64,000 nucleotides of DNA from the sequence record PZ168832.1; one strand, written 5' to 3'. The notes below the pieces were generated by a model. It made no database searches and was not told the origin of the DNA. It was given only the letters and a program-made list of their open reading frames with translations. This DNA is from a phage. This document shows, piece after piece, positions 8,898-28,134 of this stretch (position 1 is the first letter of the stretch; every line of letters starts with the position of its first letter). Position numbers and translations under genes: made by a program.

Positions 8898-8900
8898 TTC

Positions 8901-10659: not shown

Positions 10660-10988
10660 AATTGAAATGGTATGTGGACCCTGAGCCGACAGGCCAATAC
10701 AGGTCATTCCAACGTCGCGGCTGGCCGACTTGTTACAGCGGCAATCCCGATAAAGAAGACTGCGAGCTGCTTGCCGCTATCGTAAGCCTCGACCATCACG
10801 GCTATGAAGGCCACTACGCGAGAGCAACCAACCTTCGGCTCAAGGTGCGCATCCATTTCAAGGTCGCAGGCGAGGACCGCACCGGACTCTCCAAGGAAGA
10901 GTTCAGCAGCATCGCCGACGCAAAGGCGTGGCTCAAGGCTTTCTATAAGAACAACCCTAAATTCTATCCAACTAAGGATGCATCATGA
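10656..10988 (+). CDS. hypothetical protein
   Basis: ORF track. Confidence 0.4.
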   Translation: MKLKWYVDPEPTGQYRSFQRRGWPTCYSGNPDKEDCELLAAIVSLDHHGYEGHYARATNLRLKVRIHFKVAGEDRTGLSKEEFSSIADAKAWLKAFYKNNPKFYPTKDAS

Positions 10989-12347: not shown

Positions 12348-12363
12348 TAGTGATTAATGTTAA

Positions 12364-12388
12364 GAGGGCCGATTGGCCCTTTTTGTTT
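12364..12388 (+). terminator. rho-independent terminator ending the early operon
   Basis: agggccgattggccc stem followed by ttttt. Confidence 0.5.
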
Positions 12389-12880
12389 GCCTGTGGAATG
12401 TGAGGCTTTTGTGGTTATTTACGATTCAAGGCTGTAATTTAAGAGAGCGAAAATATTATAATAATTTATCAAGATTATTGCATATTGTGGCAATCAACGT
12501 TTATACGTATTTATGACAGTTTAATCCACTAAATAATACGGATAGAACAGTGAGGAAAATACAGCGGTGTATTTTAGTGTAAATATTGAATCAAAAATAA
12601 ATAATTATGGTGCTATTATATACGCAGATTGTTTGTAATTTATAGGATATTTTATCGTGGAGTATTGGCTAACGGTGCGTTAGCCGTGGGTCTTGGTGCT
12701 TGTGGTGTTGATGCTCAGAATTTTAATAATGTTTTAGTTTTAGTAATCGTAGTCAATGATGATACGTATAAGAAAATGAGAGTCACCCCTTCACAGGATA
12801 TTGTACCGTGGCCCTGTGGTGCGCCGCGCCTGGGATTGCTGGTATACACTGGTGCTATTTTGCCGCGAAGGCAGTCATTC

Positions 12881-13210
12881 ATACGTATCATGACGTATCA
12901 TTGGGCTATTGATTTATAAGGAAAAATACGCTGATACGGATGATACGGGTGCAAACATAATATATATAGAATTCCAGAAAATTAATTAACTCCATTTTGA
13001 ATTAATTTAAATTAATTTTTTTCTACATCCTCATACTTATACTAAACTTATATTTATACGTATCATCCGTAAGATATAAGTAAAAACAAAGACTTGCGGC
13101 AATACGGATGATACGTCATGATACGCTTCAACCAGCCATCTGCGGCTAAGTCATTGATTTGCATAACAAGCGGCGAAAGGGATGGATTTCTTTTATACGT
13201 ATCAAACAGT
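12881..13210. repeat. iteron region A: CCGTATCAT / ATGATACGG copies in alternating orientation around an AT-rich core
   Basis: acgtatcatgacgtatcat (~12883), gatacggatgatacgg (~12933), AT-rich core with gaattc and attaatttaaattaattttttt, cgtatcatccgta (~13059), atacggatgatacgtcatgatacg (~13102), tatacgtatca (~13196). Confidence 0.6.
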
Positions 13211-13339
13211 ACACCACGCACCACGGTCCGCAATCCACGCAGCATTATGATTTGTGTACATTTATAGCCATAATGAACATCAATCTGCACTTGAATATAA
13301 TGTCCATCCATTGTATAATTCACACTATTAATTTGCACT

Positions 13340-13828
13340 ATGGGATTTTGCACTATGAGTCAAGACTATGTAGCGATGCCTGAAGACTTTGAAGACCCGC
13401 GATTTGCAGAGCACAATCAGGCTTTATTCGATGAGTTCATTGACCTTGTTATTCAGGGCCATGACATGCGCGCAGCTTTTGCACTAGTATTTGGAATGGA
13501 AGTTGCAACGGATAACTACACTGGACAGCGAATCCTTTGCGCGCAACGCAACCCATACTACAAAATGCGCTTCAAAAAGCGTATGGAAGAGATGCCACTC
13601 AAGGATTTGTGGAGCGTAAAAGGTGCAATTCACAATTTGGTTAAGCTTGTGCGTGATCCAGAAGTCGCGGCGTCAGCCAAGCTTAATGCTATTCGCGAAC
13701 TGAATATCATCTACGGCATCACGATGATTGATGAAAACGGCAATAGTAAAATGGGCCGTTCCATGGACGATTTCTACAAGGATTTTGGAGAGGCAGCCAA
13801 AGAAGGCGAGCAATTCTCCCGCCACTAG
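13340..13828 (+). CDS. possible terminase small subunit (alternatively a DNA-binding regulator)
   Basis: 162 aa; FIDLVIQGHDMRAAFALVFG...AQRNPYYKMRF resembles the helix-turn-helix region of small terminase families (from memory); flanked by the 12-mer array. Confidence 0.4.
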   Translation: MGFCTMSQDYVAMPEDFEDPRFAEHNQALFDEFIDLVIQGHDMRAAFALVFGMEVATDNYTGQRILCAQRNPYYKMRFKKRMEEMPLKDLWSVKGAIHNLVKLVRDPEVAASAKLNAIRELNIIYGITMIDENGNSKMGRSMDDFYKDFGEAAKEGEQFSRH

Positions 13829-13845
13829 CCAATTTGCACTATAAA

Positions 13846-13880
13846 ACGGCCCTAGAACACATCTTCTCCACTTCTAGGGC
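13846..13880 (+). terminator. perfect 10-bp inverted repeat (ggccctagaa ... ttctagggcc), probable terminator
   Basis: Directly after the 13340..13828 stop; no strong T-run. Confidence 0.35.
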
Positions 13881-13942
13881 CGTCGGTAATACGACGGGGA
13901 AGGTTGCAACCGTAAACGCGTTAGAAAGTGTATTATTATAAG

Positions 13943-14206
13943 TCATCTTTTAGTCACCTTACGTAACAATTTACGACCTTCAGCCGTCCAATCGAACGAC
14001 TCCACCAGCAGATTCGCACTATAACCTAAGATGATGCGCCCTTTCTCGTTATCGACCCGCCAACAAGTCTCGAATAGCATTCGATTTGCACTATTAACTA
14101 TCGCCGCAACGCGCGTAGGGTAAACGCAATTTGCACTATGGTCATAAAGGGATAAGGTGCGACCACTTCCGATGGACAACGTAGCGATGAGAATGAGCGT
14201 ATTCAT
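13943..14206 (-). CDS. hypothetical protein (87 aa), island gene
   Basis: ORF track; CpG-rich codon usage; contains two 12-mer copies. Confidence 0.35.
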   Translation of the reverse strand: MNTLILIATLSIGSGRTLSLYDHSANCVYPTRVAAIVNSANRMLFETCWRVDNEKGRIILGYSANLLVESFDWTAEGRKLLRKVTKR

Positions 14207-14256
14207 AAGCCACCAATTTGCACTATGAAAAGCGACCCCGAAGGGCCGCCATTCGA

Positions 14257-14883
14257 TTAGATAATCTGGAAGGTGTAGGACTTGTTGCCGAACTCGAAGT
14301 TCAAGCGCCCAGCTTCCTTAAGCTTCATGCGGAAGCGAATATGTTTGCTATCCGGTAAGCCCAGCGCGGCGAACGCTACGCGGACCGATTTGAACTCTCC
14401 TACACCCTCGACCATAACGCCGTTACGGGTAAGACGCTTTTGCGCCACTTCCTTATTATCCCAACTTTTTGCAATGCCTTCGCTATTCGAACGGCGATGG
14501 GAAGGAGTTCCGTTTTGCACTACGCAATTTGCACTATCGTTTAAACCGCTCTTAACGAAGGCTTCATACTCTTCGTCGGTCATCGCGTCGAGTTCTTCCT
14601 GCGTCGGCTCGGCCTTTTTAACGACCGCACGCGCCTTATGCGTTTTTACATCGCTGGACACTTCCTCGCGCGGCTTCGCGTCGGGGATGGGCGATTCGTT
14701 GGACGGCTCATCGAGCGCGTTTAAGGACTCGATTAACGCGATTACGCGAGTCTCGGCGGTCCGGCGGTCCGAAAACTTCTTAATCGGTTTTGAGCCGGAA
14801 TTTGCATTATAGAATGCAACGAGGTCGGCGGTCTTAGTTGCGATAACGTCGCCGCTAGTCGAGAAGCGATTTAAGCTAACCAT
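14257..14883 (-). CDS. hypothetical protein (208 aa) with acidic central segment, island gene
   Basis: ORF track; EPTQEELDAMTDEEYEAF; unusually NCG-codon-rich. Confidence 0.45.
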   Translation of the reverse strand: MVSLNRFSTSGDVIATKTADLVAFYNANSGSKPIKKFSDRRTAETRVIALIESLNALDEPSNESPIPDAKPREEVSSDVKTHKARAVVKKAEPTQEELDAMTDEEYEAFVKSGLNDSANCVVQNGTPSHRRSNSEGIAKSWDNKEVAQKRLTRNGVMVEGVGEFKSVRVAFAALGLPDSKHIRFRMKLKEAGRLNFEFGNKSYTFQII

Positions 14884-14963
14884 AATAAACTCCTATTTGT
14901 TAGGGCGCTAGGCGCGAAAGAATTTTATTAAAGCGCCGCGCACGACGCTCTAAAAATCCTCTC

Positions 14964-15248
14964 TTACGCTTCGACGAGGGAGAAGGTTTCAAATTCTTCT
15001 TCTCCCATAACGAGTAAAATATTCCCGATTTCGACCGCTTCGAAGAAGTATCCGTTAACGTTTACTTCGAATGATTCGCGGTCCGATTCCGGTAACGCCG
15101 CGTAAAGTTTAAAAGCCTCGGCGACCGTTACCCCACCCGCTTCAATAGTTTGATCTACGTTCGCGGCGTAGACTTCGGATAAATTTTGTTTTACGCCGTA
15201 GTTCTCGACGATAGCGTTACGGATAGAAGAAACGTTAAGAATAGCCAT
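14964..15248 (-). CDS. small acidic protein, paralogue family member 1 (94 aa)
   Basis: About 16 D/E versus 4 K/R; SEVYAANVDQTIE and FEVNVNGYFFEAVEIGN align with YLSNVDATIE and YRVTINGFVYTITEIGG of 15880..16170. Confidence 0.5.
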   Translation of the reverse strand: MAILNVSSIRNAIVENYGVKQNLSEVYAANVDQTIEAGGVTVAEAFKLYAALPESDRESFEVNVNGYFFEAVEIGNILLVMGEEEFETFSLVEA

Positions 15249-15316
15249 TTTAAACTCCTAGTTGGGATAGGCGTTAACGACCTATTCGTTAACTCATCCC
15301 GTCCCGATATGAGTAC

Positions 15317-15344
15317 ATTATAATATAGTGTAGAAAAAAGTAAA
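15317..15344 (-). promoter_or_regulatory. promoter-leader cassette, copy 1 (minus strand): TTTACT, spacer, TATAAT, leader gtactcatatcgggacggg
   Basis: Reverse complement of the divergent region matches the two plus-strand cassette copies. Confidence 0.4.
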
Positions 15345-15388
15345 GCACTTTTTCGATAAAAATGCGATAAATTATTTTATCTTTTTTC

Positions 15389-15433
15389 TTTACTTCTTCG
15401 TACACTCGCGTATACTTGTTTATATCGAGACGG
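15389..15433 (+). promoter_or_regulatory. promoter-leader cassette, copy 2: TTTACT (16 bp) TATACT, leader gtttatatcgagacggg
   Basis: ctttacttcttcgtacactcgcgtatacttgtttatatcgagacggg upstream of ATG 15472. Confidence 0.45.
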
Positions 15434-15471
15434 GCGATGGCCTTTCTTCTACTAGCATCGGGAGCTTTATT

Positions 15472-15774
15472 ATGACTACTTTGATCTCTTCCATCCTTAC
15501 TTACGACGAAGACCGCTTAACCGTTCGCTCTCTTATCGCCGCCGTTAACGCGGAACTAGAATCTAGCGCCATTAAGGTCCGCGCGGTCGCCTTCATCGGC
15601 CTTTCCTTCGACGATATGAAGTACGCCGAACGTAGCGCCATCCGCTTCACGAAGACCGACGACGAAGCCGTTACCCTTATCGAGACGGTTACGCCGCGCG
15701 ACGAAGCGTTAATTATCATCGAGTATATCGATATAGAAGGTGATAAAGCTTATAAATATTTTATCGCAAAATAA
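15472..15774 (+). CDS. small acidic protein (100 aa), island gene
   Basis: ORF track; driven by cassette copy 2. Confidence 0.45.
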   Translation: MTTLISSILTYDEDRLTVRSLIAAVNAELESSAIKVRAVAFIGLSFDDMKYAERSAIRFTKTDDEAVTLIETVTPRDEALIIIEYIDIEGDKAYKYFIAK

Positions 15775-15785
15775 CGAAAAATTGC

Positions 15786-15830
15786 TTTACTTATTCGTAC
15801 ACTAAGACTATAATGTTTATATCGAGAGGG
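15786..15830 (+). promoter_or_regulatory. promoter-leader cassette, copy 3: TTTACT (17 bp) TATAAT, leader gtttatatcgagaggg
   Basis: gctttacttattcgtacactaagactataatgtttatatcgagaggg upstream of ATG 15880. Confidence 0.45.
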
Positions 15831-15879
15831 ATGAGGAAGCGAATAGGTCGCTACCCTCCCGACTAACTAGGAGAATATT

Positions 15880-16170
15880 ATGATTACTTTATCCGCTATC
15901 CGCGCCGCTCGCGTCGAAACTTCCGAAAACTCTAATGTATTTGGCGAAACCTTAGAGAGCGTTTATCTCTCTAACGTAGACGCGACTATCGAGTCTATTT
16001 ATGAACCGATCAACTTCCTCGACCTTTACAAGTATCGCGACGAGGACGTAGCATCCTACCGCGTAACGATTAACGGCTTCGTCTATACGATTACCGAAAT
16101 CGGCGGCGAATATCTCGCGATCCCGCAACTCGGCGGAGAAGTGACTTATTTTAAAATCGTAAGCCTTTAA
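15880..16170 (+). CDS. small acidic protein, paralogue family member 2 (96 aa)
   Basis: Alignable to 14964..15248 product; about 15 D/E versus 6 K/R. Confidence 0.5.
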   Translation: MITLSAIRAARVETSENSNVFGETLESVYLSNVDATIESIYEPINFLDLYKYRDEDVASYRVTINGFVYTITEIGGEYLAIPQLGGEVTYFKIVSL

Positions 16171-16181
16171 GGAGAAGAAAA

Positions 16182-16391
16182 ATGACTAATATGAATAACT
16201 CTCTTAACGCGCGCGCCCATCGTACCGCCGTCATCGATATGTTCCGCGAACTTAAGGAATTATGCGATAATATGAACGCGATGTTATCCATCGGCGGCTG
16301 GGGATACGAAGAAGAGGTTAAATACGCGGTTATGCGTCGTAAGCGCGATAACGTCCTGGGACAAATTAAACGCGCCGGATTATTCCTTTAA
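16182..16391 (+). CDS. hypothetical small protein (69 aa)
   Basis: ORF track; aggag RBS. Confidence 0.4.
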   Translation: MTNMNNSLNARAHRTAVIDMFRELKELCDNMNAMLSIGGWGYEEEVKYAVMRRKRDNVLGQIKRAGLFL

Positions 16392-16416
16392 TTATAATTA
16401 CCCACCGTTACTAATA

Positions 16417-16440
16417 GGCCGCGCTTAGTCGCGGCTTTTC
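16417..16440 (+). terminator. rho-independent terminator (ggccgcgcttagtcgcggc plus tttt)
   Basis: Read directly after 16182..16391. Confidence 0.45.
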
Positions 16441-16561
16441 TTCGTCCCTATTTCGATGCGCTTCTCCGCGAAAACTCCTTTATCCTTCCCTTCGTCGTCG
16501 CATAATCTTCTTCGAGATGCTCCTTAGTTCGCATAACAGGTATTACGTTAAATGGAGAACA

Positions 16562-16823
16562 TCGCGTAAGTCCTTGTTTTATATAGACACCTATATCGGA
16601 CCGTTAGGGCGGGTCGCGTAAGTCGTTGTTTTATAAAGGCGCAAAACTTTCCCTTCGTTCCGAACTAAAACGAGGAATATGCCGACCCTTCGTCCGAAAA
16701 TAGTACGCATGCGAAATTACATGCATCTAGAATAATCCCCACCGATATTATCCTACACGCAATCATTCGCTTTCGAATCATTATGCTTCATATTGTTATG
16801 CGTCAAATCATTCGCTTTCGAAT
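16562..16823. repeat. direct repeats in an ORF-poor region: tcgcgtaagtc(c/g)ttgttttata x2 and atcattcgctttcgaat x2
   Basis: Copies at about 16562/16614 and 16762/16807; the second contains palindrome attcg-cttt-cgaat. Confidence 0.4.
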
Positions 16824-17095
16824 TGTAACGCTGGAAACTGTAACGGCTATTGATTATTGCGTTCGTGTGGTTTTTATGGCATGGGTCTTTTGGTGCGTTT
16901 TGGTACTTGATGGAATTTGCGGTACACTAATCAAAATACGACACATTTGGTCCACTAACTTTTCAAAGAAAAAGTCCCAGACAGTACCGTACTATTTTGT
17001 ACCCACAGTAAATTTGCAGTACACTCCTGCGCGGCAGGCAAAATAAAGGGCCGCCACAGCGACCCACGATTCACGGTTAAATCAACAAGCACCCA

Positions 17096-17542
17096 CTATT
17101 CACTCTTATGGGCATCACCAAAGCCATCCGCAATCTGGCTGATCAGCGATTCAATGGACACAGTTTTACCAATTGATCGAGCGGTAATAGCAAGCATATT
17201 ATCAATCAAACCATGATTGGATGCATATGATCCAGGTTTTGAATCATCTTCAGAACAACCAAAAAGCTGGTCGCGCAGACTTTCAAGAGAACGCTCAATA
17301 TTTTCCAACTTCTCTTCTAAATCGGATTGGCGACGTAAAACCCACGTCAAGTCACGGTTGCCAACTTCCAATCCATCAGAATAGCAAGGTGGAGCGTCAA
17401 TTTTGATGCTGGAACCAAAAGCAATGCCGCTGCCTTTAGTATATGTGTGACTCATAGAATCATTTTTATTTGACATATCGTTACCTTCAATATTTGGGTG
17501 ATTAACAATAAGTATAATAAAGCCGCATAGCGCGGCATTCAA
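17096..17542 (-). CDS. hypothetical protein (start possibly at internal MSNKND)
   Basis: ORF track. Confidence 0.4.
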   Translation of the reverse strand: MNAALCGFIILIVNHPNIEGNDMSNKNDSMSHTYTKGSGIAFGSSIKIDAPPCYSDGLEVGNRDLTWVLRRQSDLEEKLENIERSLESLRDQLFGCSEDDSKPGSYASNHGLIDNMLAITARSIGKTVSIESLISQIADGFGDAHKSE

Positions 17543-17551
17543 ATCGATTTA

Positions 17552-17800
17552 TTAATTGTGACGATTGGATTCATCAATCGATACCAATTGTGCAGGGTCG
17601 CCGGATACAGTTGCGCCGATGATGCCCATCTGAGAGAAAAATTCTGAATAAACTTCCTTCCAGTACTTACGCGCTGCTTTCTGGGCTTGTCCTTTGCGCT
17701 TGAAGCTTTTGCCTTGAAAGATGAAACGGTCTTTTGGCGCGGAATACTCCACCACACCTTCCAGCCATTGTAAGAATGCTACTGATTCATTTTGATTCAT
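17552..17800 (-). CDS. hypothetical protein (82 aa)
   Basis: ORF track. Confidence 0.35.
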   Translation of the reverse strand: MNQNESVAFLQWLEGVVEYSAPKDRFIFQGKSFKRKGQAQKAARKYWKEVYSEFFSQMGIIGATVSGDPAQLVSIDESNRHN

Positions 17801-17807
17801 ATAATCC

Positions 17808-18209
17808 TCAATATTTTAATAAGAAAGCGCCCAACCAACTTTCCTCAATCTCGCGGCCAGTAGCCACACGGTCGGTCTTTGCTATGGGTCTGGATTCGCC
17901 GCAGGGTAATCCGTCTTGTAGCTGTGTACTATTGCCAATTCTCACCAAAACCTTTCCATCAGGGTCGATATAAGCGCGACAACCCATGATTTCGAGTCGC
18001 TGTAGACACTGGCGAATCGTTTTCAGCTTCTCACCGGACCGGATAGAGCGTGGTCGCGACCGCGACCGCTGACCGTTCTTATTCACTGTACGCTTGAAAA
18101 CCGGAATATCATTGGTGCGTTGTGGCTTGGGTCGGTAGTAGGCTTCTTCACCAGGAGTTGCGCCTGGTGTCAGTTCGCGCTTAAGCGCCTTTTCGATATC
18201 GATGATCAT
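17808..18209 (-). CDS. hypothetical basic protein (133 aa)
   Basis: ORF track; Arg/Ser-rich segment. Confidence 0.4.
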   Translation of the reverse strand: MIIDIEKALKRELTPGATPGEEAYYRPKPQRTNDIPVFKRTVNKNGQRSRSRPRSIRSGEKLKTIRQCLQRLEIMGCRAYIDPDGKVLVRIGNSTQLQDGLPCGESRPIAKTDRVATGREIEESWLGAFLLKY

Positions 18210-18303
18210 AATTCATGCCGCAGCAGCATGGATGATTGCGTAAACAATTCCAAACAGGGCGACAACACAAACAGTGCCCCAAAATGCAAAGCGTCGTGAC
18301 TCT

Positions 18304-18525
18304 TTATCCATTGTCCACCGCCCCAATATCAGTTAAGAACTCGTGCAACGCGCCTTTCTTATTGAGTCTTTGCATAGTTTTGATATCATCAAGCGATATA
18401 CTCTGATCACTTTGCTGTTTATCTATGCAGACAAGGCCGCCTTTCTTAGCCTTGATTGTCATGCCTTTGGCTTCAATACTTTTTACGAAATCGGACAATA
18501 ATTTAATTTCCATAATACACCTCAC
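18304..18525 (-). CDS. hypothetical small protein
   Basis: ORF track; track start is GTG, ATG four codons in (MEIKLL). Confidence 0.35.
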   Translation of the reverse strand: MRCIMEIKLLSDFVKSIEAKGMTIKAKKGGLVCIDKQQSDQSISLDDIKTMQRLNKKGALHEFLTDIGAVDNG

Positions 18526-18594
18526 TTGTTAACGTATAATGAGTATAACTTAATAGCCCATAAAGTAAAGGCGCTTTTCAGCGCCTTGAGTGAA

Positions 18595-20952
18595 TTATTT
18601 CGCTGCTTTCAGCGCGGCTATCTCTGCCTTGAGTTCATCTATCTGATCCATCAATGCAAGAATAGCCTCGTGGTGCAGTGCTGCTGCTACACCTGGTGTG
18701 TTGACAGATTTTATGTTATCCAACGTCGAACCGTCGCGCAGAGTAACAGGCGATGACTGTGTTTCAGATACTGCTTCAGGAAAGTCTTTCTCTACATCCT
18801 GGGCGATGAAGCCAAAACCGACGGAGCCATTAGTTTCCAGAGTCCATGCCACGCCTCTGATGTTGCGCATCTTGACAAGTGGATCAGTGATCCGCTCAAT
18901 GTTACTTTTAATACGTTCATCAGATATACTCCGCCACTCCTGACACCTTGCTATTCCATCGGAGCCAAAAAGATAAGAGGCCGCGCCGCCTGTCCCGCTG
19001 TAAACGTTCAATTGCGCGCGGTCCAGCGTGGTCGTGCTACTCCTTATGCCTCCGAGAATCCAGCTTCCACTGTACCAGTCACCGCTGATTGAGTTTACAA
19101 AATTTCCTTCTGGAACGTTGGCATAGTTTTGAATCCTTATGGCGTTGTTTTCTGCAGCAGCAACGCCTACTGAATTAACTGGGGATGCAACAAGGTCTTT
19201 AGACCGGATATATGCATCAACAACTATTGTCCCATCAGGGCGCAGAGTTCCAATCTGGGATGTGGAATTCGGCAACACCAATTTGCCATCTTGGTTAAAT
19301 GCCCACTCTTGCACCCCATTAGATATCACAGCACCTTGTTCAGACGTCAATCCATCAATTTTGCCGTATGCCTGCAAGAATGCTTGATACGCGATGTTCG
19401 TGCCAATCTTATATTCAGATTTTACACTACCGCCTCTGACAAGCATTCCGGCTGCAGGTTTTACTGCGTCGCCGTTAATCACACTCCAAGAAGTATTCGC
19501 GGCAACAAATCCACCCGATGCACGAATCACCCAAACGCCAACAAAGTTGCGACCCATGATTTCGTCAGTTGCCGCTCCATAAATCGGGCTTGATCTGGAT
19601 GCATCAATATTTATTGTATTGAGACGCCCCTCTACTGCCCCGCTTCCAACAGGTATGGTGTCGCCAGCGCCTTGGGGGTACAAATCGTTGTTTGTGTAAA
19701 AAGCACCTCGGACGGCTGTGCCAAAGATTTGCGCATAAGTGCCTGCCGATACACCAGCGGCTGAGCCTGTGATGTTTGGTGCAGCAGATTCAAATATTTG
19801 ACCGTTCGCAGTGGAGTTGCCGCCATCACCGCGCCCGTAAAGCGCCCGTACAGAGCCTGTCTGAACACCGTTAAGGTCTGGGACACGGAATGTCGTTGTG
19901 CCGTTACCTGAAGAATATTTTGCACGTTTGAACTTATCCGCAAGCCAGTCGGCATCTGCGATGGGCGAAAGCATTTGCGCATACGCCCAAAGTTCAGGCC
20001 AGTCAGCACGGTTTAGCAATTGCCCGTCTGCAACGACTTCGTATGGCTGAATATATGATCTACTATTGCGAAGATGGAAATCGCCAACACCATAGTTCAT
20101 GACGCCGTTCATACTTGGACCAACGGTGCCTGTGTTTACTAAGTTTTCAACCCAACGCTTAGTCGCGGCATCATAATCATTTACAGGGTCGCCAGCGAGC
20201 GGCGTTGATCCTTGTGGACGGATGTTTAGCCACGCCTGAGCATTATCTGCAGAGCCTGTGCCGCCCATTGAAGTTGGAACGATGCTCTGATCAGCAACAG
20301 GGCCGAATCCAAAAGCAGACTTCATCCCTTGGATGGTAGTTTGCCCTGTGCCGCCGTTGGCGACTGGGATGACAGATTTACTGTTGTATAATTGCGCCCA
20401 TTGACTCCAAACCCCATTTACCGCGTTGTAAGTCCTTTGGTATGTAACATTGTTGTAATATGTTGAGTATCTTTGGACGCAACTTTCTATTGATGGTCCA
20501 GTTTTTAGGACTTCAAGGACTCCTGCTTGTGAAACTGGGTAATTAAGAACAGTCTGAGCATCTGCATTGAAGTCTTGGAAATAATTTCCAAACCAAGAGC
20601 CTGTCAGAAAGTTGAGATTTATCCCAGAAGGAAGTTTGCCATAATTTCTTACAACCCCTGTTAAGGTCGCAGCAGTGTTACGAATAGAAAGCATGTCACC
20701 AGCAGACCATGCACGCGCTGCCGTACCTTCTTGTGCGCGCTGCACGGTCAGGACGTCTCCAACCACGGCTGTCACTGTGACAATTTCGAATTGGCGGCCT
20801 GTTGCAGCGTCGACGATTGTCGCCACTACACGCTCGTTCGCGCCCAAGGTCGGAAATCCCGACCCTGAGCGAATTGTGATTGTGGTGTCTGAAGTCGTCG
20901 TTGGTTGAGCCAGCGCGACCTCAAAGTTGTTTTTGAATATTAGCCTTGGCAT
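18595..20952 (-). CDS. tail spike/fibre with C-terminal intramolecular chaperone (peptidase S74-like) domain
   Basis: 785 aa; fibre-like Gly/Ser/Thr/Asn-rich repeats, YDAATKRWVEN motif; C-terminal SDERIKSNIERI...GFIAQDVEKDFPEAV followed by a coiled-coil tail, the hallmark of self-cleaving chaperone domains. Confidence 0.8.
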   Translation of the reverse strand: MPRLIFKNNFEVALAQPTTTSDTTITIRSGSGFPTLGANERVVATIVDAATGRQFEIVTVTAVVGDVLTVQRAQEGTAARAWSAGDMLSIRNTAATLTGVVRNYGKLPSGINLNFLTGSWFGNYFQDFNADAQTVLNYPVSQAGVLEVLKTGPSIESCVQRYSTYYNNVTYQRTYNAVNGVWSQWAQLYNSKSVIPVANGGTGQTTIQGMKSAFGFGPVADQSIVPTSMGGTGSADNAQAWLNIRPQGSTPLAGDPVNDYDAATKRWVENLVNTGTVGPSMNGVMNYGVGDFHLRNSRSYIQPYEVVADGQLLNRADWPELWAYAQMLSPIADADWLADKFKRAKYSSGNGTTTFRVPDLNGVQTGSVRALYGRGDGGNSTANGQIFESAAPNITGSAAGVSAGTYAQIFGTAVRGAFYTNNDLYPQGAGDTIPVGSGAVEGRLNTINIDASRSSPIYGAATDEIMGRNFVGVWVIRASGGFVAANTSWSVINGDAVKPAAGMLVRGGSVKSEYKIGTNIAYQAFLQAYGKIDGLTSEQGAVISNGVQEWAFNQDGKLVLPNSTSQIGTLRPDGTIVVDAYIRSKDLVASPVNSVGVAAAENNAIRIQNYANVPEGNFVNSISGDWYSGSWILGGIRSSTTTLDRAQLNVYSGTGGAASYLFGSDGIARCQEWRSISDERIKSNIERITDPLVKMRNIRGVAWTLETNGSVGFGFIAQDVEKDFPEAVSETQSSPVTLRDGSTLDNIKSVNTPGVAAALHHEAILALMDQIDELKAEIAALKAAK

Positions 20953-20990
20953 TTTACGGTCCTCGTTTTGTCGACAACCGTATTATAACC

Positions 20991-21332
20991 TTAATTTCTT
21001 TTGAGAGGAATATGACGGTGGCTGCCATTATTTGGTTTAATAATGAGCATAAAAACGATTAGAAAGATGATGGCTGATATACTTAATTCAATCAGCGCGG
21101 CTTGAGATATGGATTGGTCTTCGTGATACTGCTTTTGCATTTCCGCTTTCTTCTGAGCGCAAACTTCAGGTGATATATAATCGCCTTTTGAGTTGCCATA
21201 ATAAATCTCGCCATTCTCAGAAATAAGTCTGCCGCAAATATCAGTTTCAGCCTTTGCGCTTGACATCATAATGACGGTGCCGATGATAGCGGCAATTGTC
21301 CAGATTAGCAGTTGTGATAAAGTGTTGTTCAT
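20991..21332 (-). CDS. small membrane protein (N-terminal and C-terminal hydrophobic segments)
   Basis: Track ORF 20991..21566 trimmed to internal ATG (MNNTLSQLLIWTIAAIIG...); hairpin cccttcccacatcgggaaggg just upstream. Confidence 0.4.
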   Translation of the reverse strand: MNNTLSQLLIWTIAAIIGTVIMMSSAKAETDICGRLISENGEIYYGNSKGDYISPEVCAQKKAEMQKQYHEDQSISQAALIELSISAIIFLIVFMLIIKPNNGSHRHIPLKRN

Positions 21333-21528
21333 GATGACCTCTTTAAATTCCCTTCCCACATCGGGAAGGGTGAATATTATTTTAAACGAAAGAATAGGCG
21401 CGTGCCACACAGAGAGTCCCAACGGCCTTCGCCGTCCCATATCGAACCAACGCCAGCAGTGATTGGGCCAGCAGAATTGGCGGCATTGGCCCAAGCGAGA
21501 CGTTTCAACTTCCAACTGCACCAACGAT

Positions 21529-21792
21529 TCACAGTTCACCTCCAGATTGCAAAACAAGTCCCGCATAGAGGATTGCTAAAGCTAAAGGCGCACCACTTCC
21601 AGCTTCTCTATTCTCTTTGATTTGAAGAGTGTCCTTAAGGAATTGCAGCTGAACGTTGAATTCATTTTCAATTCCAAGCACTCCAGCTAATTCTTTTACA
21701 GAATCTGCATATGCCTTGTCTAGCACTTCTTTTGGTACTGTTAAAGTCAATTCATTTGCCATTTTCTTTCCACTCCACAAATGTGCTGCCAC
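21529..21792 (-). CDS. hypothetical small protein
   Basis: ORF track; probable start at MANELTL. Confidence 0.35.
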   Translation of the reverse strand: MAAHLWSGKKMANELTLTVPKEVLDKAYADSVKELAGVLGIENEFNVQLQFLKDTLQIKENREAGSGAPLALAILYAGLVLQSGGEL

Positions 21793-21973
21793 TTGTTTCT
21801 CTATTTAGCAGGTATCTGCCGCGCATTCCATGAAGGCTGAATTCAACCGTCGATGGATTAGATTTTGAAAGCCACATCGCTTGACCGTCGAATGGTCCGC
21901 CAACGCATGTGTATTTGGCTTTTGGCTCACTCCTTTTGGGCCGTTTTGCCCGCTCTTTGATTGATAGTCTCAT
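21752..21973 (-). CDS. hypothetical small basic protein
   Basis: ORF track. Confidence 0.35.
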   Translation of the reverse strand: MRLSIKERAKRPKRSEPKAKYTCVGGPFDGQAMWLSKSNPSTVEFSLHGMRGRYLLNRETSGSTFVEWKENGK

Positions 21974-22188
21974 CAGTCTTCACCTTGAGATTCAAGACAA
22001 GTAAGAACAAGCCATGTCATCGGAAGAATCAAAACCAGAGAAATAAGGGACCAGATGGACCAGCACAAGATGACAGACTTGAATGTGTGAACGTCGCCAA
22101 ACGCAGCAGTGAAACAAAATCCCATCACGAAAGCAAGCGCGGTGGAGTGGTTATCAATGGCTTTGATGGCACGGTCGATGAGTTTCAT
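21973..22188 (-). CDS. small membrane protein (two predicted TM helices)
   Basis: ALAFVMGFCFTAAFG and WSLISLVLILPMTWLVL hydrophobic stretches. Confidence 0.4.
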   Translation of the reverse strand: MKLIDRAIKAIDNHSTALAFVMGFCFTAAFGDVHTFKSVILCWSIWSLISLVLILPMTWLVLTCLESQGED

Positions 22189-22277
22189 ATTACCTCCGGT
22201 TTTGAGTTAATATGATTATAACGCAGAGCTTCAGAAAGGCAAACTTTTTGTGAATTTATGCCGTCCATGGCAAATGA

Positions 22278-22508
22278 TTAGTGAGAAGACACGACTAATG
22301 TGCCGCTTCCTTTCGCGAAAATCTCAACACCTGGCGGGATTGTGACCGTGCCAACCACTGCGATTCCGATCAACTTGTCATCGGCTTTTTCTTCGAAACA
22401 GATCTCTGCGGCACCGCCGCGAACTTGAATAAGTGCGCCTGATACGTTTTCAGCAACAGAAAGAACGGAAGTGTAAGATGGAGTGAGTTGAATATTTACT
22501 AGGGCCAT
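22278..22508 (-). CDS. hypothetical protein (76 aa)
   Basis: ORF track; hairpin plus T-run (minus sense) immediately upstream of its RBS. Confidence 0.4.
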   Translation of the reverse strand: MALVNIQLTPSYTSVLSVAENVSGALIQVRGGAAEICFEEKADDKLIGIAVVGTVTIPPGVEIFAKGSGTLVVSSH

Positions 22509-22626
22509 GATTTACTCCTGATAAAAAAATGGCCAGAAAGAATCTGGCCGAAAAGATCACCCTTTATCCACTACTAAGCTGGAATCATAATTTTACTTGA
22601 TATAGCTGTCGCAAGCAAACTATAAT

Positions 22627-24087
22627 ATGAATAAAATATTAACACATAATTGGAAAGTCATGTACCAGTTGAATCCTGCTTTAAGAGAAGTCTGGAAGAC
22701 GAAAGCGCGATACAAAGTAATATACGGCGGTCGTGCATCTTCCAAATCGCATGATGCCGCTGGTTTTGCTATTTATTTGGCGGCAAACTTTAAATTAAAA
22801 TTCCTTTGCGTTCGACAATTCCAGAACAAGATTTCTGAATCAGTATATACGCTATTAAAAGACAAAATAGAAATTTCTGATTTCAAAGATGAGTTCAACT
22901 TGTTAAAGAACTCCATTGAACACAAAAGAACAAAATCTGAATTCTTATTTTACGGTATCGCACGCAACGTTGACGAAATCAAATCAACAGAAGGCGTTGA
23001 TGTTCTTTGGCTTGAAGAAGCGCACGCACTTACTGAAGAGCAGTGGGACATCATTGAGCCGACAATTCGTAAGGAAGGGTCCGAAATATGGATCATATTT
23101 AACCCTGATGAAGAGGCTGATTTCGTCTACCAGAACTTTGTTATGCGACCGCCTAAAAATGCCATCGTTAAGAAGATTAACTGGCAGGACAATCCATTCT
23201 TGTCGCAAACAATGCTGGACGTTATCGCTGGCATGTATGAGCGCGACCCGAAAAAGGCAGAACACGTTTATGGCGGAGTACCGAAGACAGGCGGCGACAA
23301 GTCGGTCATCAACCGTGCATTCGTCAAGGCCGCACTAAACCTCCACAAACACCCTACGTTGGGATGGAGCTTGTCAGGGTCTAACCGTATAGGCTTTGAC
23401 GTGGCAGACGACGGCGACGACTTAAACGCCACAGCATTTGTCACGGGCAACGTATTGCGCGGCATAAAGACATGGGAAGGTCTGGAAGATGAATTGCTTA
23501 AGTCCGCAAGCGGAGTTTGGAAAGATGCATTAACATTCGGCGCATCAATTACCTATGACGCCATCGGTGTTGGTGCATTTGCTGGTTCAAAATTTGATGA
23601 GCTTAATGAGTATGCAATCCATGAAAATCCAACATTCCCAAGAATCGAATTTAATGCGTTCAACGCGCAAGGTGCTGTTGATGATCCTGATGACGTCTTC
23701 CTTGAGTTACCACACGTTGAAATACTCAATAAAGACCATTTCGCAAACATAAAAGCGCAAAAATGGACTGAGATTGCCGAACGATTCAGGAAGACATATG
23801 AGTATGCAACAGGGCAGGCCGTATACCCGACTGATGAGCTGATTTCCATCGACACAGACGGCATTCCAGAACTTGGGATTCCTGCTTGGTCTGCGGAAGA
23901 AATTGAGACATTTCTTTTTGAGATGTCAGCGCCGCGCAAAGACACGTCTGTGCTTGGTAAGTTTAAAGTTGAATCGAAAAAGGATATGGCAAAGCGTGGA
24001 GTCAAATCGCCTAACAAAGCGGACGCAGCAATCATGGCGTTGATGAAACCAATTGTTGCAGCATCCGGCTTCTTCTCTAACCTTTAA
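22627..24087 (+). CDS. terminase large subunit
   Basis: 486 aa; Walker A-like YGGRASSKS near N-terminus; ATPase-then-nuclease layout; true start may be the second in-frame ATG (MYQLNPA) because TATAAT abuts the first ATG. Confidence 0.8.
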   Translation: MNKILTHNWKVMYQLNPALREVWKTKARYKVIYGGRASSKSHDAAGFAIYLAANFKLKFLCVRQFQNKISESVYTLLKDKIEISDFKDEFNLLKNSIEHKRTKSEFLFYGIARNVDEIKSTEGVDVLWLEEAHALTEEQWDIIEPTIRKEGSEIWIIFNPDEEADFVYQNFVMRPPKNAIVKKINWQDNPFLSQTMLDVIAGMYERDPKKAEHVYGGVPKTGGDKSVINRAFVKAALNLHKHPTLGWSLSGSNRIGFDVADDGDDLNATAFVTGNVLRGIKTWEGLEDELLKSASGVWKDALTFGASITYDAIGVGAFAGSKFDELNEYAIHENPTFPRIEFNAFNAQGAVDDPDDVFLELPHVEILNKDHFANIKAQKWTEIAERFRKTYEYATGQAVYPTDELISIDTDGIPELGIPAWSAEEIETFLFEMSAPRKDTSVLGKFKVESKKDMAKRGVKSPNKADAAIMALMKPIVAASGFFSNL

Positions 24088-24090
24088 CAA

Positions 24091-24330
24091 TTAAAGCATT
24101 CCGTGCTGAAGGTCGAGTTTTCTTGCGGCAAACGACCTGGCACGGAATCGCTTACCCGCCCTTACTGCCTGTCGAATCTTCTTTTGCAAACACTTACGAT
24201 CAAAATCGTTGCGGTCGACGGCTTCGAGTAAATCACGACGCAAAGCACCCAGTGTCGACTTTTCAGAGACTTCAACGCCCAGCGCCGCTGCAACGTCTTT
24301 CAAAACATCGAGTTCGGTTAAAGTTCTCAT
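24091..24330 (-). CDS. hypothetical small basic protein (79 aa), second gene of a two-gene insert
   Basis: ORF track; ATGA overlap with upstream gene; opposite strand to flanking terL and portal. Confidence 0.4.
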   Translation of the reverse strand: MRTLTELDVLKDVAAALGVEVSEKSTLGALRRDLLEAVDRNDFDRKCLQKKIRQAVRAGKRFRARSFAARKLDLQHGML

Positions 24331-24743
24331 TTGATAATCCCCTTGATGTCTGATTCTGCCATAAAGATTGGAGTTCCGCCGCCAGGAACAATCGAGCGCG
24401 TGACTTTATCAAACATATCGTTTTCTTCAACTTGAATACGATAGAATTTATTTTTGGATGAAGATGGGCACAATCCCATAAATTTGCCGATTCCGCGAAC
24501 GCATTCATCTTCAAAGTATACTGTTTCACCTTGAATGGAGTCGATGTTGTCTACTGGATAGACTTTGCGACCCAACAACCACTCATCCAAAGTAGCTTGC
24601 AAGACGTTTCGCGCATCTAAAATCCACGGGTCAATAATAGCACCTTCATATCGCGCAGCAGTGGCTTTTGCCAGCTCTTCATATTCGCATACGTTTACCA
24701 CTTCGCCTTGATGAAGGACGACAAATACAATTGTTGTGCTCAT
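24327..24743 (-). CDS. hypothetical protein (138 aa), first gene of the two-gene insert
   Basis: ORF track. Confidence 0.4.
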   Translation of the reverse strand: MSTTIVFVVLHQGEVVNVCEYEELAKATAARYEGAIIDPWILDARNVLQATLDEWLLGRKVYPVDNIDSIQGETVYFEDECVRGIGKFMGLCPSSSKNKFYRIQVEENDMFDKVTRSIVPGGGTPIFMAESDIKGIIK

Positions 24744-24872
24744 TTCAATCTCCTTTCGTTTGGTTAACTAAAATATAACTCAAAATGATACAAAAGCAAA
24801 ATATTTTATGAACTATTTATGATTACTATACATATCATTTGCTTACAAACACATGAATATTTATAATATAGA

Positions 24873-27281
24873 TTGATTCCCTTTCACTGTCAGGTGGCGT
24901 TAACAATGAAAATTCTTGGCATAAAACTCTGGGAGAAGACGCAACCAGAAGCCGAACCAGCGGAGATGCCGCCAGGCGACCCATTGGCACCGTTTGAACG
25001 CCTTGAAAGGCGCGGCAGCGGTCAACGCTGGGAAAAGACTGAAAGCAATCGACCGACCTTTAAAACGGTTGATGACTTCCCTTTATATGAGCCTGATATT
25101 AATGGCGATGGTGTTGCAATCATAAAAGGTCGTTCAGTCGATTCCGCAACAGTATCCAAAAAGGTTATGGATAATGCCTTAAAGAACATCAGTTCAGAAG
25201 GGCAAGTCAACCCATACACAGTACCTATTCAACTTCAAAACTGGTATTTGTCACAGTCATTTATCGGCTATCAAGCTTGTGCCATCATCGCACAGCATTG
25301 GCTGGTGAACAAGGCTTGCTCTATGGTAGGCCGTGATGCAGTGCGTAAAGGTTGGGAAGTAAAATCAAGCTCTGAATCAGAATTGTCTGTGCAGGCCAGC
25401 GAACGCTTAAAGCAAATTGATAAAGAATTTAATATCAAAGAGCACTTAGTTGAAGCCGAACGATTCAAAAATATTTTTGGTATCCGCGTCATCATATTTG
25501 ATGTGCGTAGCGATGATCCAGAATACTACAGCAAACCTTTTAACATTGATGGTGTGACAAAGGGGTCTTATAAGGGAATCATTCAGGTTGACCCTTATTG
25601 GATGATGCCATTTTTGACGTCTGAAAACACCGCCGACCCTGCATCACAGCACTTCTATGATCCAGAATACTGGGTGATCAGCGGACAACGTTATCATCGA
25701 AGCCACCTGATCATTTTGCGAAACGATGAGCCAGCTGATATTCTCAAGCCGACTTATATTTACGGCGGCATCCCTCTGACTCAGCAGATTTATGAACGCA
25801 TCTATGCCGCTGAACGTACCGCTAACGAAGCGCCATTGCTGGCGATGTCCAAGCGTACAACCACGCTGCGGACCGACGTTGACAAGGCGATTGCCAATGA
25901 GCGGTCTTTTGCTGAACGTCTGATGATGTGGATTAAGTACCGCGACAACTATGCAGTCAAAGTGCTTGGTCAAAAAGAAGAGATGGACCAGTTCGACATC
26001 AACTTGTCAGACTTCGACAGCATCATCATGAACCAGTACCAGCTGGTGGCCGCAATCGCAAAAGTTCCGTCGACCAAACTTCTTGGGACTTCGCCAAAAG
26101 GCTTTAACGCCACTGGTGAATTTGAGATGGTCAGCTATCACGAAGAGTTGGAAACGTGCCAGCAGCATGACCTGACAAAAATTCTCGACCGCCATTACAA
26201 AATCCTTCTCAAATCAGAAGGGGTGGAAGTCGACGTTAAGGTTGCATGGGAACCAGTTGGCTCACTTACTGCTACTCAACTTGCAGAAATCAACGACAAG
26301 CGAGCTAACACTGGCAAAACTCTCATTGATGCTGGCGTCATTTCTCCTGATGAAGAGCGCGACCGCATCAAAGACGACAAAAACAGCGGCTACAACCGTC
26401 TGCCGGAAGACGCAGCAGAAGAAACCCCAGGGATGTCTCCAGAGAATATGGCATTGCTTGGCAAGTCTGCTGGTGAAGTCCTGCAAGGTAAGGCCGATAT
26501 TGAACAGGCGAAAGTTGATGTCGTTAAGATGGGCGGCCAGTTCTATAGCGAAACAGGTATTATGCCAGAGGGTGCCGCGCGTGGTGAGTTGGCGGAAAAC
26601 CCTGACAAAGCGCCTGTCGAAATCAACATGGACGATACCGATGATGAATCAAGCCATCAGGTTGATGTCCTAACGCAGTTGAAAGAAGGGCTGGAGGGTA
26701 TTGCGGATTACTACCTGAAAGAAGGTCAGGATGTGGATTTTGACCCTCAAAAAGATTCACGGTCGGTGCAACCGTCTACCCTTCCAAGCGTTAAAGGACA
26801 CGTCGTCAACTTACGCCACAACGTGGGTAAAATGGACGCAGCATCATTACCTAAGATGAAGTTGCACGGAATGATTCTTGGCATTGAGAATCCGCGAAAC
26901 AGCATTCGTAGAGGAAACAGCCTTGACGGTGAATGGGCCGTGAAGATGCCGCACCACTACGGATTCATCAAGGGCACCAAGGGCGCAGACGGTGATGAAG
27001 TCGACTGCTTTGTGGGTCCAAATCTGAAGTCGCCGAAAGTCTTTATCGTGAACCAAAACGATAACTACTCTGGCGAGTTTGATGAACACAAGTGTATGCT
27101 TGGATTCGATTCAGCAGAAGAAGCGAAAGAAGCTTATCAAGCATCATTTGGTAACGGTTGGAACGGATTCGACTCAATCCACGAATTAGATGTGAACTCA
27201 TTCAAGGAGTGGTTGAAGGGTGATTGCTCTCAAGCATACGGAGCACTCAATAATCCTACTAATTCACCGAAGCAAGGTTGA
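24873..27281 (+). CDS. portal protein with long C-terminal extension
   Basis: About 800 aa between terL and the Mu-F-like head protein; likely start is ATG at 24906 (MKILGIK), since the track start is a non-ATG codon. Confidence 0.7.
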   Translation: MIPFHCQVALTMKILGIKLWEKTQPEAEPAEMPPGDPLAPFERLERRGSGQRWEKTESNRPTFKTVDDFPLYEPDINGDGVAIIKGRSVDSATVSKKVMDNALKNISSEGQVNPYTVPIQLQNWYLSQSFIGYQACAIIAQHWLVNKACSMVGRDAVRKGWEVKSSSESELSVQASERLKQIDKEFNIKEHLVEAERFKNIFGIRVIIFDVRSDDPEYYSKPFNIDGVTKGSYKGIIQVDPYWMMPFLTSENTADPASQHFYDPEYWVISGQRYHRSHLIILRNDEPADILKPTYIYGGIPLTQQIYERIYAAERTANEAPLLAMSKRTTTLRTDVDKAIANERSFAERLMMWIKYRDNYAVKVLGQKEEMDQFDINLSDFDSIIMNQYQLVAAIAKVPSTKLLGTSPKGFNATGEFEMVSYHEELETCQQHDLTKILDRHYKILLKSEGVEVDVKVAWEPVGSLTATQLAEINDKRANTGKTLIDAGVISPDEERDRIKDDKNSGYNRLPEDAAEETPGMSPENMALLGKSAGEVLQGKADIEQAKVDVVKMGGQFYSETGIMPEGAARGELAENPDKAPVEINMDDTDDESSHQVDVLTQLKEGLEGIADYYLKEGQDVDFDPQKDSRSVQPSTLPSVKGHVVNLRHNVGKMDAASLPKMKLHGMILGIENPRNSIRRGNSLDGEWAVKMPHHYGFIKGTKGADGDEVDCFVGPNLKSPKVFIVNQNDNYSGEFDEHKCMLGFDSAEEAKEAYQASFGNGWNGFDSIHELDVNSFKEWLKGDCSQAYGALNNPTNSPKQG

Positions 27282-27282
27282 T

Positions 27283-28134
27283 ATGGCTTTTAAAGCTTCG
27301 AAAAAACGTGAACGCCGCTCACCCGATAGAATCGGACGCGGCAGTCCGATAATCCCATCAAACGCTATTGCGATGGCCTACCGTCGTGAGATGAAAGGTC
27401 TTTGCTATGCGATGATTGATGACTATCAGGCAGGCATTTCAGAATGGCTTGACAAGAAGCAGGTGCAGAAGTTTTTTGCGCAAGACTCTGCTGATTCGAC
27501 ATTCCAGACCCTTATGAAACGGCTGCAACTGAAATGGGCAAAGGCGTTTGCACGTGTTGGGTCGAAGATTGCCGCTGATTTTATCAAATCGGTCGAAAAG
27601 GGTGCCACTTCTGCTACATTCGCAAGCCTTAAGTCCGCAGGCATAGAAGCGCCAAAGGCCACATATAACAAATTCGTTGAGAACACTCTTAGAACAAGCG
27701 AGAAGTTTAACACGACTCTAGTGACTAAGGTCGGCGAGGATATTCACAACAGGGTGTACGAAGCGGTGATGCTTTCGCTGACTTCGCCAGACCCAGCACA
27801 GCAAGGCGCATCCGGCATTCAGGCGGCATTAAGAAATGTCAAACACTTCTCTGCAAAACGCGTAGACCTTATCGCCAAAGACCAAACGAGCAAACTTTAT
27901 TGCGTATTAAGTGATGAAAGGATGCGACAGAATGGCGTGGAGGAATTTGAGTGGGCGCATTCAGGAGCAGGCAAAGAGCCGCGAATATCACATGAGCACG
28001 TCGACGGCATGAGATTCAAGCTTGATGACAAACGCTTATGGGAAGTAGGTGGAGAACTTAAGTTCAAAAAGGGTGACATCGGTCCTCCTGGATGGGCAAT
28101 ACACTGCAAGTGCAGAAAAATACCAATTATCTGA
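27283..28134 (+). CDS. head morphogenesis protein (Mu gpF / SPP1 gp7-like)
   Basis: Track ORF 27220..28134 trimmed to MAFKASKK; C-terminal ...PPGWAIHCKCRKIPII resembles the conserved H-x-C-x-C end of this family. Confidence 0.65.
   Translation: MAFKASKKRERRSPDRIGRGSPIIPSNAIAMAYRREMKGLCYAMIDDYQAGISEWLDKKQVQKFFAQDSADSTFQTLMKRLQLKWAKAFARVGSKIAADFIKSVEKGATSATFASLKSAGIEAPKATYNKFVENTLRTSEKFNTTLVTKVGEDIHNRVYEAVMLSLTSPDPAQQGASGIQAALRNVKHFSAKRVDLIAKDQTSKLYCVLSDERMRQNGVEEFEWAHSGAGKEPRISHEHVDGMRFKLDDKRLWEVGGELKFKKGDIGPPGWAIHCKCRKIPII

Follow-up and report, generated by a model that had tools for sequence, protein, structure and literature searches.

Separated terminase genes in a Wifcevirus genome, with the small terminase gene in a predicted terminal repeat beside a candidate recognition array

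The 64,000-nucleotide stretch of phage DNA analysed here (record PZ168832.1, called the window below, with positions numbered along it) carries the gene for the small terminase subunit (terS, 13340..13828) well apart from the gene for the large subunit (terL, 22627..24087). It is likely that the window is a Wifcevirus with the ancestral PB1-like layout, in which terS, terL and the portal gene stand as three units between minus-strand blocks, and that its DNA is packaged by the mechanism proposed below. Judged by gene order, the split is inherited and ancestral to the PB1-like clade and not the product of recent insertions, because no relative examined has the two genes side by side and all of them share the order of genes. 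The arrangement in itself is a known PB1-like one: the split has been published for the pbunavirus E217, and the record of the closely related Escherichia phage Mansfield already annotates terS. Three further features appear to be unreported, namely an array of the short repeat TTGCACTA over terS, a CpG-rich interior of the terminal repeat and a duplicated end element; no description of the array, the CpG-rich interior or the end element was found in the literature searched. The features on which the argument depends are the following.

12994..16890, plus strand: equivalent of a direct terminal repeat (DTR), 3,897 bp, placed by homology; its genes are terS and five or six small ones, and it includes a CpG-rich domain
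13291..13319, plus strand: consensus-only match to a sigma-70-like promoter ahead of terS (TTGAAT-17-TATAAT, agreeing at 10 of 12 positions)
13340..13828, plus strand: terS, small terminase subunit, ATG, 162 aa; the alternative start at 13355 gives 157 aa
22597..22626, plus strand: TTGATA-18-TATAAT, the best sigma-70-like match in the region, 11 of 12 positions, ending one base before ATG 22627
22627..24087, plus strand: terL, large terminase subunit, ATG, 486 aa; probable start 22660
24091..24743, minus strand: two genes between terL and portal (24091..24330 and 24327..24743), open reading frames (ORFs)
24873..27281, plus strand: portal gene, by homology

Position of the terminase genes in the window and its relatives

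A megablast search with positions 12000-25000 matched 59 phage records, with the Escherichia phages ECML-117, vB_Eco4M-7, Ro157lw, TH35, WFC, WFH and Mansfield as top matches at 91-95% identity. Both flanking 13-kb stretches returned the same set of records, and the window is 92-96% identical at the nucleotide level to ECML-117, Mansfield and WFC. The structural region is covered 99-100% in 29 records, and the window is collinear with the Wifcevirus type members. As the searches with 12000-25000 and with its flanks give the Wifcevirus set, the window is assigned to this genus of E. coli myoviruses, whose genomes are about 68 kb long and which the literature regards as distantly related to the PB1-like pbunaviruses of Pseudomonas. 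E. coli sequencing runs also commonly contain Wifcevirus-like contigs of that length (about 68 kb).

The first-pass annotation had proposed that the product of 13340..13828 is a small terminase, and the structural comparison agrees. In a phmmer search the product matched PDB entry 7UXE ('Small terminase') with E=6.1e-34 and 41% identity, residues 7-152 aligning to 6-150 of 189. This entry is the cryo-EM decamer of the E217 TerS according to a review from the E217 structure laboratory, in which the protein is treated as a genuine TerS and a complementation assay is reported (PMC9611059). The product also belongs to phrog_4783 (4e-75), a family with the PHROGs label 'unknown function', and has no Pfam family match. 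Its orthologue in Mansfield (CPT_Mansfield_002, 96% identical) is annotated as 'terminase small subunit' on HHpred evidence in the GenBank record, and the orthologue is still called 'hypothetical protein' in most records, including those of the 2025 BASEL isolates. On these similarities, we identify the product as orthologous to the decameric TerS of E217, whose structure has been solved. Its true start is probably ATG 13355, which is the start annotated in relatives and has GGGA 8 nt upstream.

The terL product matches Pfam Terminase_3 (PF04466, E=3.2e-37), PDB entry 8DKR ('Large terminase protein') over residues 217-484 (2.6e-84) and Sf6 gp2 (4IFE/4IDH) over its full length, residues 12-476 (3e-64). 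Its amino-acid identity is 100% to Mansfield and ECML-117 and 64% to E217. Translation probably starts at ATG 22660 (475 aa), as the promoter match ends at 22626, GGAAAG stands before this ATG and residue 12 is the first to align with Sf6; the same start is annotated in Mansfield, WFC and FEC19. Both terS and terL have a promoter-like site of their own. The three genes flanking terL (22278..22508, 24091..24330 and 24327..24743) are all on the opposite strand and gave no terminase-like match in PHROGs, Pfam or PDB, on which ground an alternative terS adjoining terL was rejected.

The gap between terS and terL in the window (13829..22626) is 8,798 bp, as the first-pass annotation had estimated (about 8.8 kb), and the ORFs of both genes are where it placed them. 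The pair does not form a canonical same-strand operon, since the DNA in between holds at least 15 ORFs, most of them on the opposite strand. Searching with TerS (tblastn) found 359 phage records that carry it, of which 295 are from Pseudomonas phages and 27 from Escherichia phages, with others from phages of Serratia, Burkholderia, Xanthomonas, Pantoea, Erwinia, Salmonella and Aeromonas. We located terS and terL in representatives of these records, namely in Wifcevirus, in two phages of Kylevirus (Kyle and the Pantoea phage PA1), in E217 (Pbunavirus), XcP1 (Carpasinavirus), BcepF1 (Bcepfunavirus) and TropicalSun (Myosmarvirus) and in Salmonella phage PCSE1. The gaps between the two genes were:

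Mansfield: 8,649 bp
ECML-117: 8.4 kb as annotated
Kyle: 9,261 bp
PA1: about 9.2 kb
E217: 7,655 bp, measured through the record ends on the circular map
PCSE1: 7,866 bp
XcP1: 3,451 bp
BcepF1: 20,182 bp
TropicalSun: at least 7.3 kb

The first-pass annotation had pointed to synteny as the check on whether the genes are adjacent in related phages; they are adjacent in none of these nine relatives with the E217-type TerS family, the gaps ranging from 3.5 to 20 kb. The order common to the relatives examined is replication genes, terS on the plus strand, mostly minus-strand small genes, terL on the plus strand, a minus-strand block and the portal gene on the plus strand, and this order with its strand pattern is kept in 8 lineages at 30-43% TerS identity. 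The closer setting of terS, in which the primase module is followed by terS and then by a convergent gene of phrog_4730 with terL kilobases away, is found in E217, Kyle, PA1 and PCSE1. The phrog_4730 homologue is further along the block after terS in XcP1 and TropicalSun, and BcepF1 has the split with no homologue detected in its locus. The BcepF1 terS homologue itself (record 20082-20486; 33% identity, E=2e-24) is unannotated, and the opposite-strand coding sequences BcepF1.058-.060 are annotated over it.

In the linear record of E217, about 58 kb separate terS from terL (PMC9611059), which is the same split as the 7.7 kb measured on the circle. As in the window, terS follows primase genes in E217, the convergent phrog_4730 gene comes next and minus-strand small genes lead up to terL. 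The two genomes differ in that E217 has no TTGCACTA array, its interval has no full-length tail fiber gene and its terL and portal genes are 6.5 kb apart versus 0.8 kb in the window. The pbunaviruses are also reported as circularly permuted and terminally redundant, unlike the exact repeats of Wifcevirus. Nearer to the window, Mansfield, WFC, WFH and ECML-117 have the same gene order, with the annotated terS of Mansfield inside its PhageTerm-predicted repeat of 3,673 bp, and they differ from the window just by indels at 14964..15248, 16182..16391, 18304..18525 and 22278..22508 and in the receptor-binding part of the fiber.

Terminal repeat, end element and short-repeat array

By homology, 12994..16890 corresponds to an exact DTR of about 3.9 kb in which terS is the first substantial gene, 346 bp inside the left end. 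The records of Mansfield, WFC and SA1 all start at window position 12994, and the right ends of Ro157lw, SP13 and WFH together with the PhageTerm repeat of Mansfield all map to nucleotide 16890. Paired copies of the repeat at the two record ends are 100% identical in WFC (3,784 bp) and in Kyle (3,603 bp), Korf et al. described terminal repeats of about 3.7 kb, and the paper on Mansfield reports that PhageTerm classed it as a direct terminal repeat phage; WFC and WFH have been treated in the literature as well. Because terS lies within the DTR, virion DNA would carry two copies of it, and the WFC record indeed has terS twice (gp001 and gp107). The DTR interior makes up about 3.1 kb of the 8.8-kb interval, and the rest is a unique, mostly minus-strand block with the host-range tail fiber gene. 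Inspection revealed no clear resemblance between the right and left boundaries of the repeat. The non-coding and AT-rich stretch 12410-12934, immediately before the left repeat end, is matched by only Bas99 among the seven Wifcevirus loci that cover it (nine compared).

The three features that may be connected with the formation of the genome end are:

12870..13140, unstranded: quasi-palindromic element of about 270 bp with an AT-rich core and inverted GATGATACG/CGTATCAT repeats; the left end 12994 is in the core
13332..14810, plus strand: array of 11 copies of (A)ATTTGCACTAT, from the terS start codons through the next two minus-strand genes
14500..16700, unstranded: CpG-rich domain ('CpG island'), wholly within the terminal repeat

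The CpG island that had been noted between terS and terL is real: the ratio of observed to expected CpG at about 14500-16700 is 1.9-2.27, the highest in the 64-kb window (mean 1.14, standard deviation 0.25). The excess falls mostly on the boundaries between codon positions 3 and 1, in genes of both strands. The interior of the Kyle repeat is enriched as well (1.5-1.9) and the ratio goes down to 1.0 past the repeat end. As the CpG-rich segment is the repeat interior and the Kyle repeat interior is also enriched, it does not seem to be a recent import. In public assemblies, many contigs with the 208-aa gene that lies in this region are just 3.2-4.4 kb long, a length that would fit separate assembly of a repeat with double coverage.

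In the end element, a perfect 18-nt inverted repeat pairs 12884-12901 with 13108-13125. The repeat CGTATCAT has 14 copies in the window versus 1.87 expected, and seven of them are at 12759-13125. A paralogous copy of the element, with inverted GATGATACG around an AT-rich core, lies at 28375-28660 between the head-morphogenesis gene 27220..28134 and the ORF 28761..30179, in a place that is locally both CpG-rich and AT-rich; this copy may act as an origin or in regulation.

All 11 matches to TTTGCACTAT (at most one mismatch) in the 64-kb window are within 13332-14810 on the plus strand, where about 0.1 sites would be expected, and no other 9-mer of the window has as many copies as TTTGCACTA. Each of the first eight sites (13333-14225) is found in 11-12 of the 12 Wifcevirus genomes compared, and 4% of the columns in these sites vary versus 12% in the rest of the region (p=0.024). 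The TTGCACTA core is also repeated in Kyle (nine copies, locus 580-1483) and PA1 (ten copies, 12269-13114), with its position and strand relative to terS unchanged, despite a TerS identity of about 41-43%. No TTGCACTA sites and no convincing alternative array, only 8-mers in four copies, were found in the loci of E217, PCSE1, XcP1 and BcepF1. Another short motif, CCACCAGC, forms arrays on the terS strand, around terS or just after it, in Kyle (255-1972), PA1 (11861-13433) and TropicalSun (8487-8992, all in locus coordinates); it has only two copies in the terS region of the window (13822 and 14002), each fused to a TTGCACTA site. From its position and conservation, we infer that the TTGCACTA array is a candidate TerS recognition site.

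Kylevirus shares several of these features with the window: the exact 3,603-bp repeat of Kyle begins 356 bp before terS and has the same gene order and a CpG-rich interior, and Kyle and PA1 both have the TTGCACTA array on the terS strand and terL about 9.2-9.3 kb downstream. They are unlike the window in that their TerS is only about 41-43% identical, with no nucleotide similarity in the terS region. Other short repeats (GGTTATT and ATATCCGAA) flank the left end in Kylevirus, and the additional CCACCAGC array is prominent there.

We propose that a ring of TerS would assemble on the same-strand TTGCACTA array over its own gene, just inside the left end, and would recruit TerL, which would cut at 12994 in the AT-rich core of the end element. 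Packaging would then run rightward and end past the next repeat at 16890, and the repeat would be duplicated during packaging, as in T7-type packaging. With this mechanism, terS would stay beside its DNA target and not beside terL, and the turnover of accessory genes between the two would therefore be harmless. The array, if it is the recognition site, would account for the tethering of terS to the genome end, in two copies per virion and away from terL. As a more tentative extension, which we consider possible but unlikely, an Sf6-type and normally headful terminase would have turned site-specific in Wifcevirus and Kylevirus and would make exact repeats of about 3.6-3.9 kb, with the array as its recognition site and with the CpG-rich interior and both copies of the GATGATACG element belonging to the same system of end formation or first entry.

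Clusters of short repeats by terS near the cut are known from well-studied phages: cosB of lambda lies beside Nu1, and the pac sites of P22 and SPP1 are inside gene 3 and gene 1, respectively. The array is like these in its position relative to terS, as judged by sequence, and TerS binding is putative here; the window differs from lambda, P22 and SPP1 in that their terS and terL are adjacent and co-transcribed, while here the genes are 8.8 kb apart and have separate promoter-like sites. Exact direct terminal repeats with fixed ends range from 160 bp in T7 to about 10 kb in T5 and about 13 kb in SPO1. In T7, there are short repeat arrays near the repeat boundaries, and in T5 and SPO1 the long repeats contain small early-type genes. 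The window is unlike all three, as its repeat holds terS itself and its TerL is of the Sf6 type.

Several observations weigh against the proposed mechanism. TerL of the Sf6 type is usually headful (cf. the BcepF1 annotation note), and the E217 TerS had no appreciable DNA binding in vitro (PMC9611059), which makes binding of TerS to the array less plausible. Only a single copy of the repeat is contained in the window, so that its ends are placed by homology, and the right end of WFC is 81 bp past 16890. The end element cannot be sufficient for cutting, as its copy at 28375-28660 is apparently uncut. When all 11 array sites are taken together, their conservation within the genus is not above background (p=0.12), and the three distal sites are lineage-specific and missing in some isolates. 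The array might equally be bound by the conserved 208-aa neighbor or by a host protein. Finally, the promoter matches are consensus matches and only slightly more frequent than in shuffled sequence (30 versus 23.3 expected).

Genes and variation within the interval

The accessory DNA that the first-pass annotation had described between terS and terL is present, and its minus-strand receptor-binding cassette corresponds to the tail fiber gene. From left to right, the interval contains:

13943..14206, minus strand: 87-aa ORF, convergent with terS; listed as a gene in the Mansfield and WFC records, with weak homologues in Kyle, PA1 and TropicalSun; contains three array sites
14257..14883, minus strand: gene for a 208-aa protein, phrog_4730 (1.1e-89)
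14964..15248, minus strand: variable 94-aa gene; present in Mansfield, TH35, TH32 and Bas99, replaced in ECML-117, WFC, SA1 and Eco4M-7
15472..15774 and 15880..16170, plus strand: two small genes (ORFs), conserved in every Wifcevirus locus and putatively expressed from a divergent promoter region at about 15317-15416
16182..16391, plus strand: 69-aa putative transcriptional regulator, phrog_10377 (9.5e-38)
17096..18525, minus strand: small-gene block (ORFs); gene 18304..18525 is variable (present or absent)
18595..20952, minus strand: tail fiber gene with C-terminal intramolecular chaperone, Peptidase_S74 (1.9e-11), phrog_6921 (2.5e-257)
20991..22508, minus strand: small genes leading up to terL (ORFs), no terminase-like matches

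The 208-aa gene is the only gene of the interval conserved across genera and occurs together with terS in six of the other seven lineages covered. Its homologues are E217 gp79, Kyle gp4, XcP1_081, one each in PA1 and PCSE1 and two in TropicalSun, where the gene is duplicated. The conserved parts of the protein are the N-terminal 50 or so residues and about 85 C-terminal residues with the motif KHIRFRMKLK. There was no Pfam or PDB match with the single sequence or with a profile of seven sequences, and PHROGs gave no function. A wider search for homologues returned only proteins that are 98-100% identical and no useful alignment, and the single-sequence AlphaFold model was unusable (predicted local distance difference test, pLDDT, 40.5).

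Matches to TTTACT-16/17-TATAAT are found on both strands at 15317-15416, and further ones at 15786-15814 and 18542-18569. The divergent TTTACT/TATAAT pair is inside the terminal repeat and embedded in inverted repeats of 19-33 nt, which suggests that the repeat genes are transcribed early by the host polymerase from such sites. The block 17096..18525 had no functional family match in the library scans, and the interval had no Rfam match, no tRNA and only trivial tandem repeats. The ORF 20991-21566 on the minus strand is open over 191 aa in the window and in ECML-117, where relatives annotate genes of 113 aa and 51 aa.

Across Wifcevirus, the backbone of the interval is 87-97% identical, and the differences consist of small-gene indels and a swap in the fiber. 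A 231-bp indel at 16161-16391, which includes the regulator gene, is present in ECML-117, Eco4M-7 and FEC19 and not in Mansfield, WFC, TH35, TH32, SA1 and Bas99, and 22258-22522 (gene 22278..22508) is absent in WFC, SA1, FEC19 and Bas99. The receptor-binding part of the fiber (about 18630-19760) is swapped between isolates and is matched by ECML-117 and Eco4M-7 only, which fits the T-shaped Wifcevirus fiber with a conserved N-terminus and variable receptor-binding domains described in the BASEL paper. The mosaicism of the interval is similar to that of the other small-gene region (1-12993), and the structural module alone is uniformly conserved.

Alternative explanations and significance

Could terS and terL once have been adjacent, so that the 8.8 kb between them was filled by inserted accessory DNA such as the CpG island and the receptor-binding cassette? 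We consider this very unlikely. The interval does vary in the way an insertion zone would, with small genes present or absent among isolates, an exchanged receptor-binding part, a length of 3.5 to 20 kb among genera, more mosaicism than in the structural module and a compositionally distinct CpG-rich domain. However, an adjacent pair was seen in no relative examined and a single order and strand pattern recurs in 8 lineages, the backbone is well conserved across the genus and the 208-aa gene beside terS is conserved across genera. In addition, the CpG-rich segment belongs to the interior of a terminal repeat that is enriched in Kyle too, and about 3.1 kb of the interval is thereby a fixed structural feature of the genome. 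Since the mosaicism exceeds that of the structural module and yet is like that of region 1-12993, calling the interval plastic is fair, as the first-pass annotation did, but its view that insertions had separated an adjacent pair does not agree with a split found in every relative examined. It is still less probable that 13340..13828 does not encode the working TerS and that the true terS is an unrecognised small gene beside terL. The missing Pfam match, the 'unknown function' label of PHROGs, the 'hypothetical' entries in most GenBank records and the failure of the E217 TerS to bind DNA in vitro would allow such a view, and the first-pass annotation had also left room for it. Against it stand the similarity over the full length to the solved E217 TerS (6e-34), for which a complementation assay is cited (PMC9611059), and the genes that flank terL, which are on the opposite strand, have no terminase-like match and in one case are absent from several isolates.

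The role of the array is a separate question. Together with the AT-rich element, it might be a replication origin, with iterons for a phage initiator or for host DnaA, or an operator for terS and the convergent genes, and we regard this as possible although doubtful. Short repeats in the same orientation beside an AT-rich core are typical of origins, the core of the array is two mismatches from the DnaA box TTATNCACA when compared by eye, and terS comes after the primase and helicase module. Two of the sites overlap the terS start codons just past the promoter match, which would suit autoregulation, the second copy of the end element (28375-28660) is far from any genome end, and the negative DNA-binding result with the E217 TerS points in the same direction. 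On the other hand, the array occurs in both genera with long exact repeats and is missing from the Pbunavirus locus and from three other relatives that still replicate, and it is placed 0.3-1.8 kb inside the left end, over terS, like the recognition sites of lambda, P22 and SPP1. It could also be argued that the 'DTR' is the terminal redundancy of a headful packager after a precise pac cut at 12994, with terS merely beside the pac site, as the full-length match of TerL to Sf6 gp2, the circularly permuted and terminally redundant genomes described for pbunaviruses and the 81-bp deviation of the WFC right end would fit this. We find it unlikely, because headful cuts are imprecise, whereas four independent determinations (Mansfield by PhageTerm, Ro157lw, SP13 and WFH) end at one nucleotide, Mansfield was classed as a direct terminal repeat phage and in Kyle an exact repeat of 3,603 bp contains the same set of genes.

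The layout described here has consequences for the annotation of these phages. The E217-type TerS family has no Pfam model, carries the label 'unknown function' in PHROGs and is recorded as hypothetical in nearly all of the 359 phage records that hold it. Annotation pipelines that look for terS next to terL will therefore overlook it, and at present genomes are linearised at terL and not at their true ends. For phage biology, the results suggest that terS can be linked to the genome end, which is its DNA target, rather than to terL. If the array is the recognition site, Wifcevirus and Pbunavirus would form a tractable pair for studying how one terminase lineage switches between headful packaging and exact repeats, a question relevant to the engineering and rebooting of these therapy-related phages.

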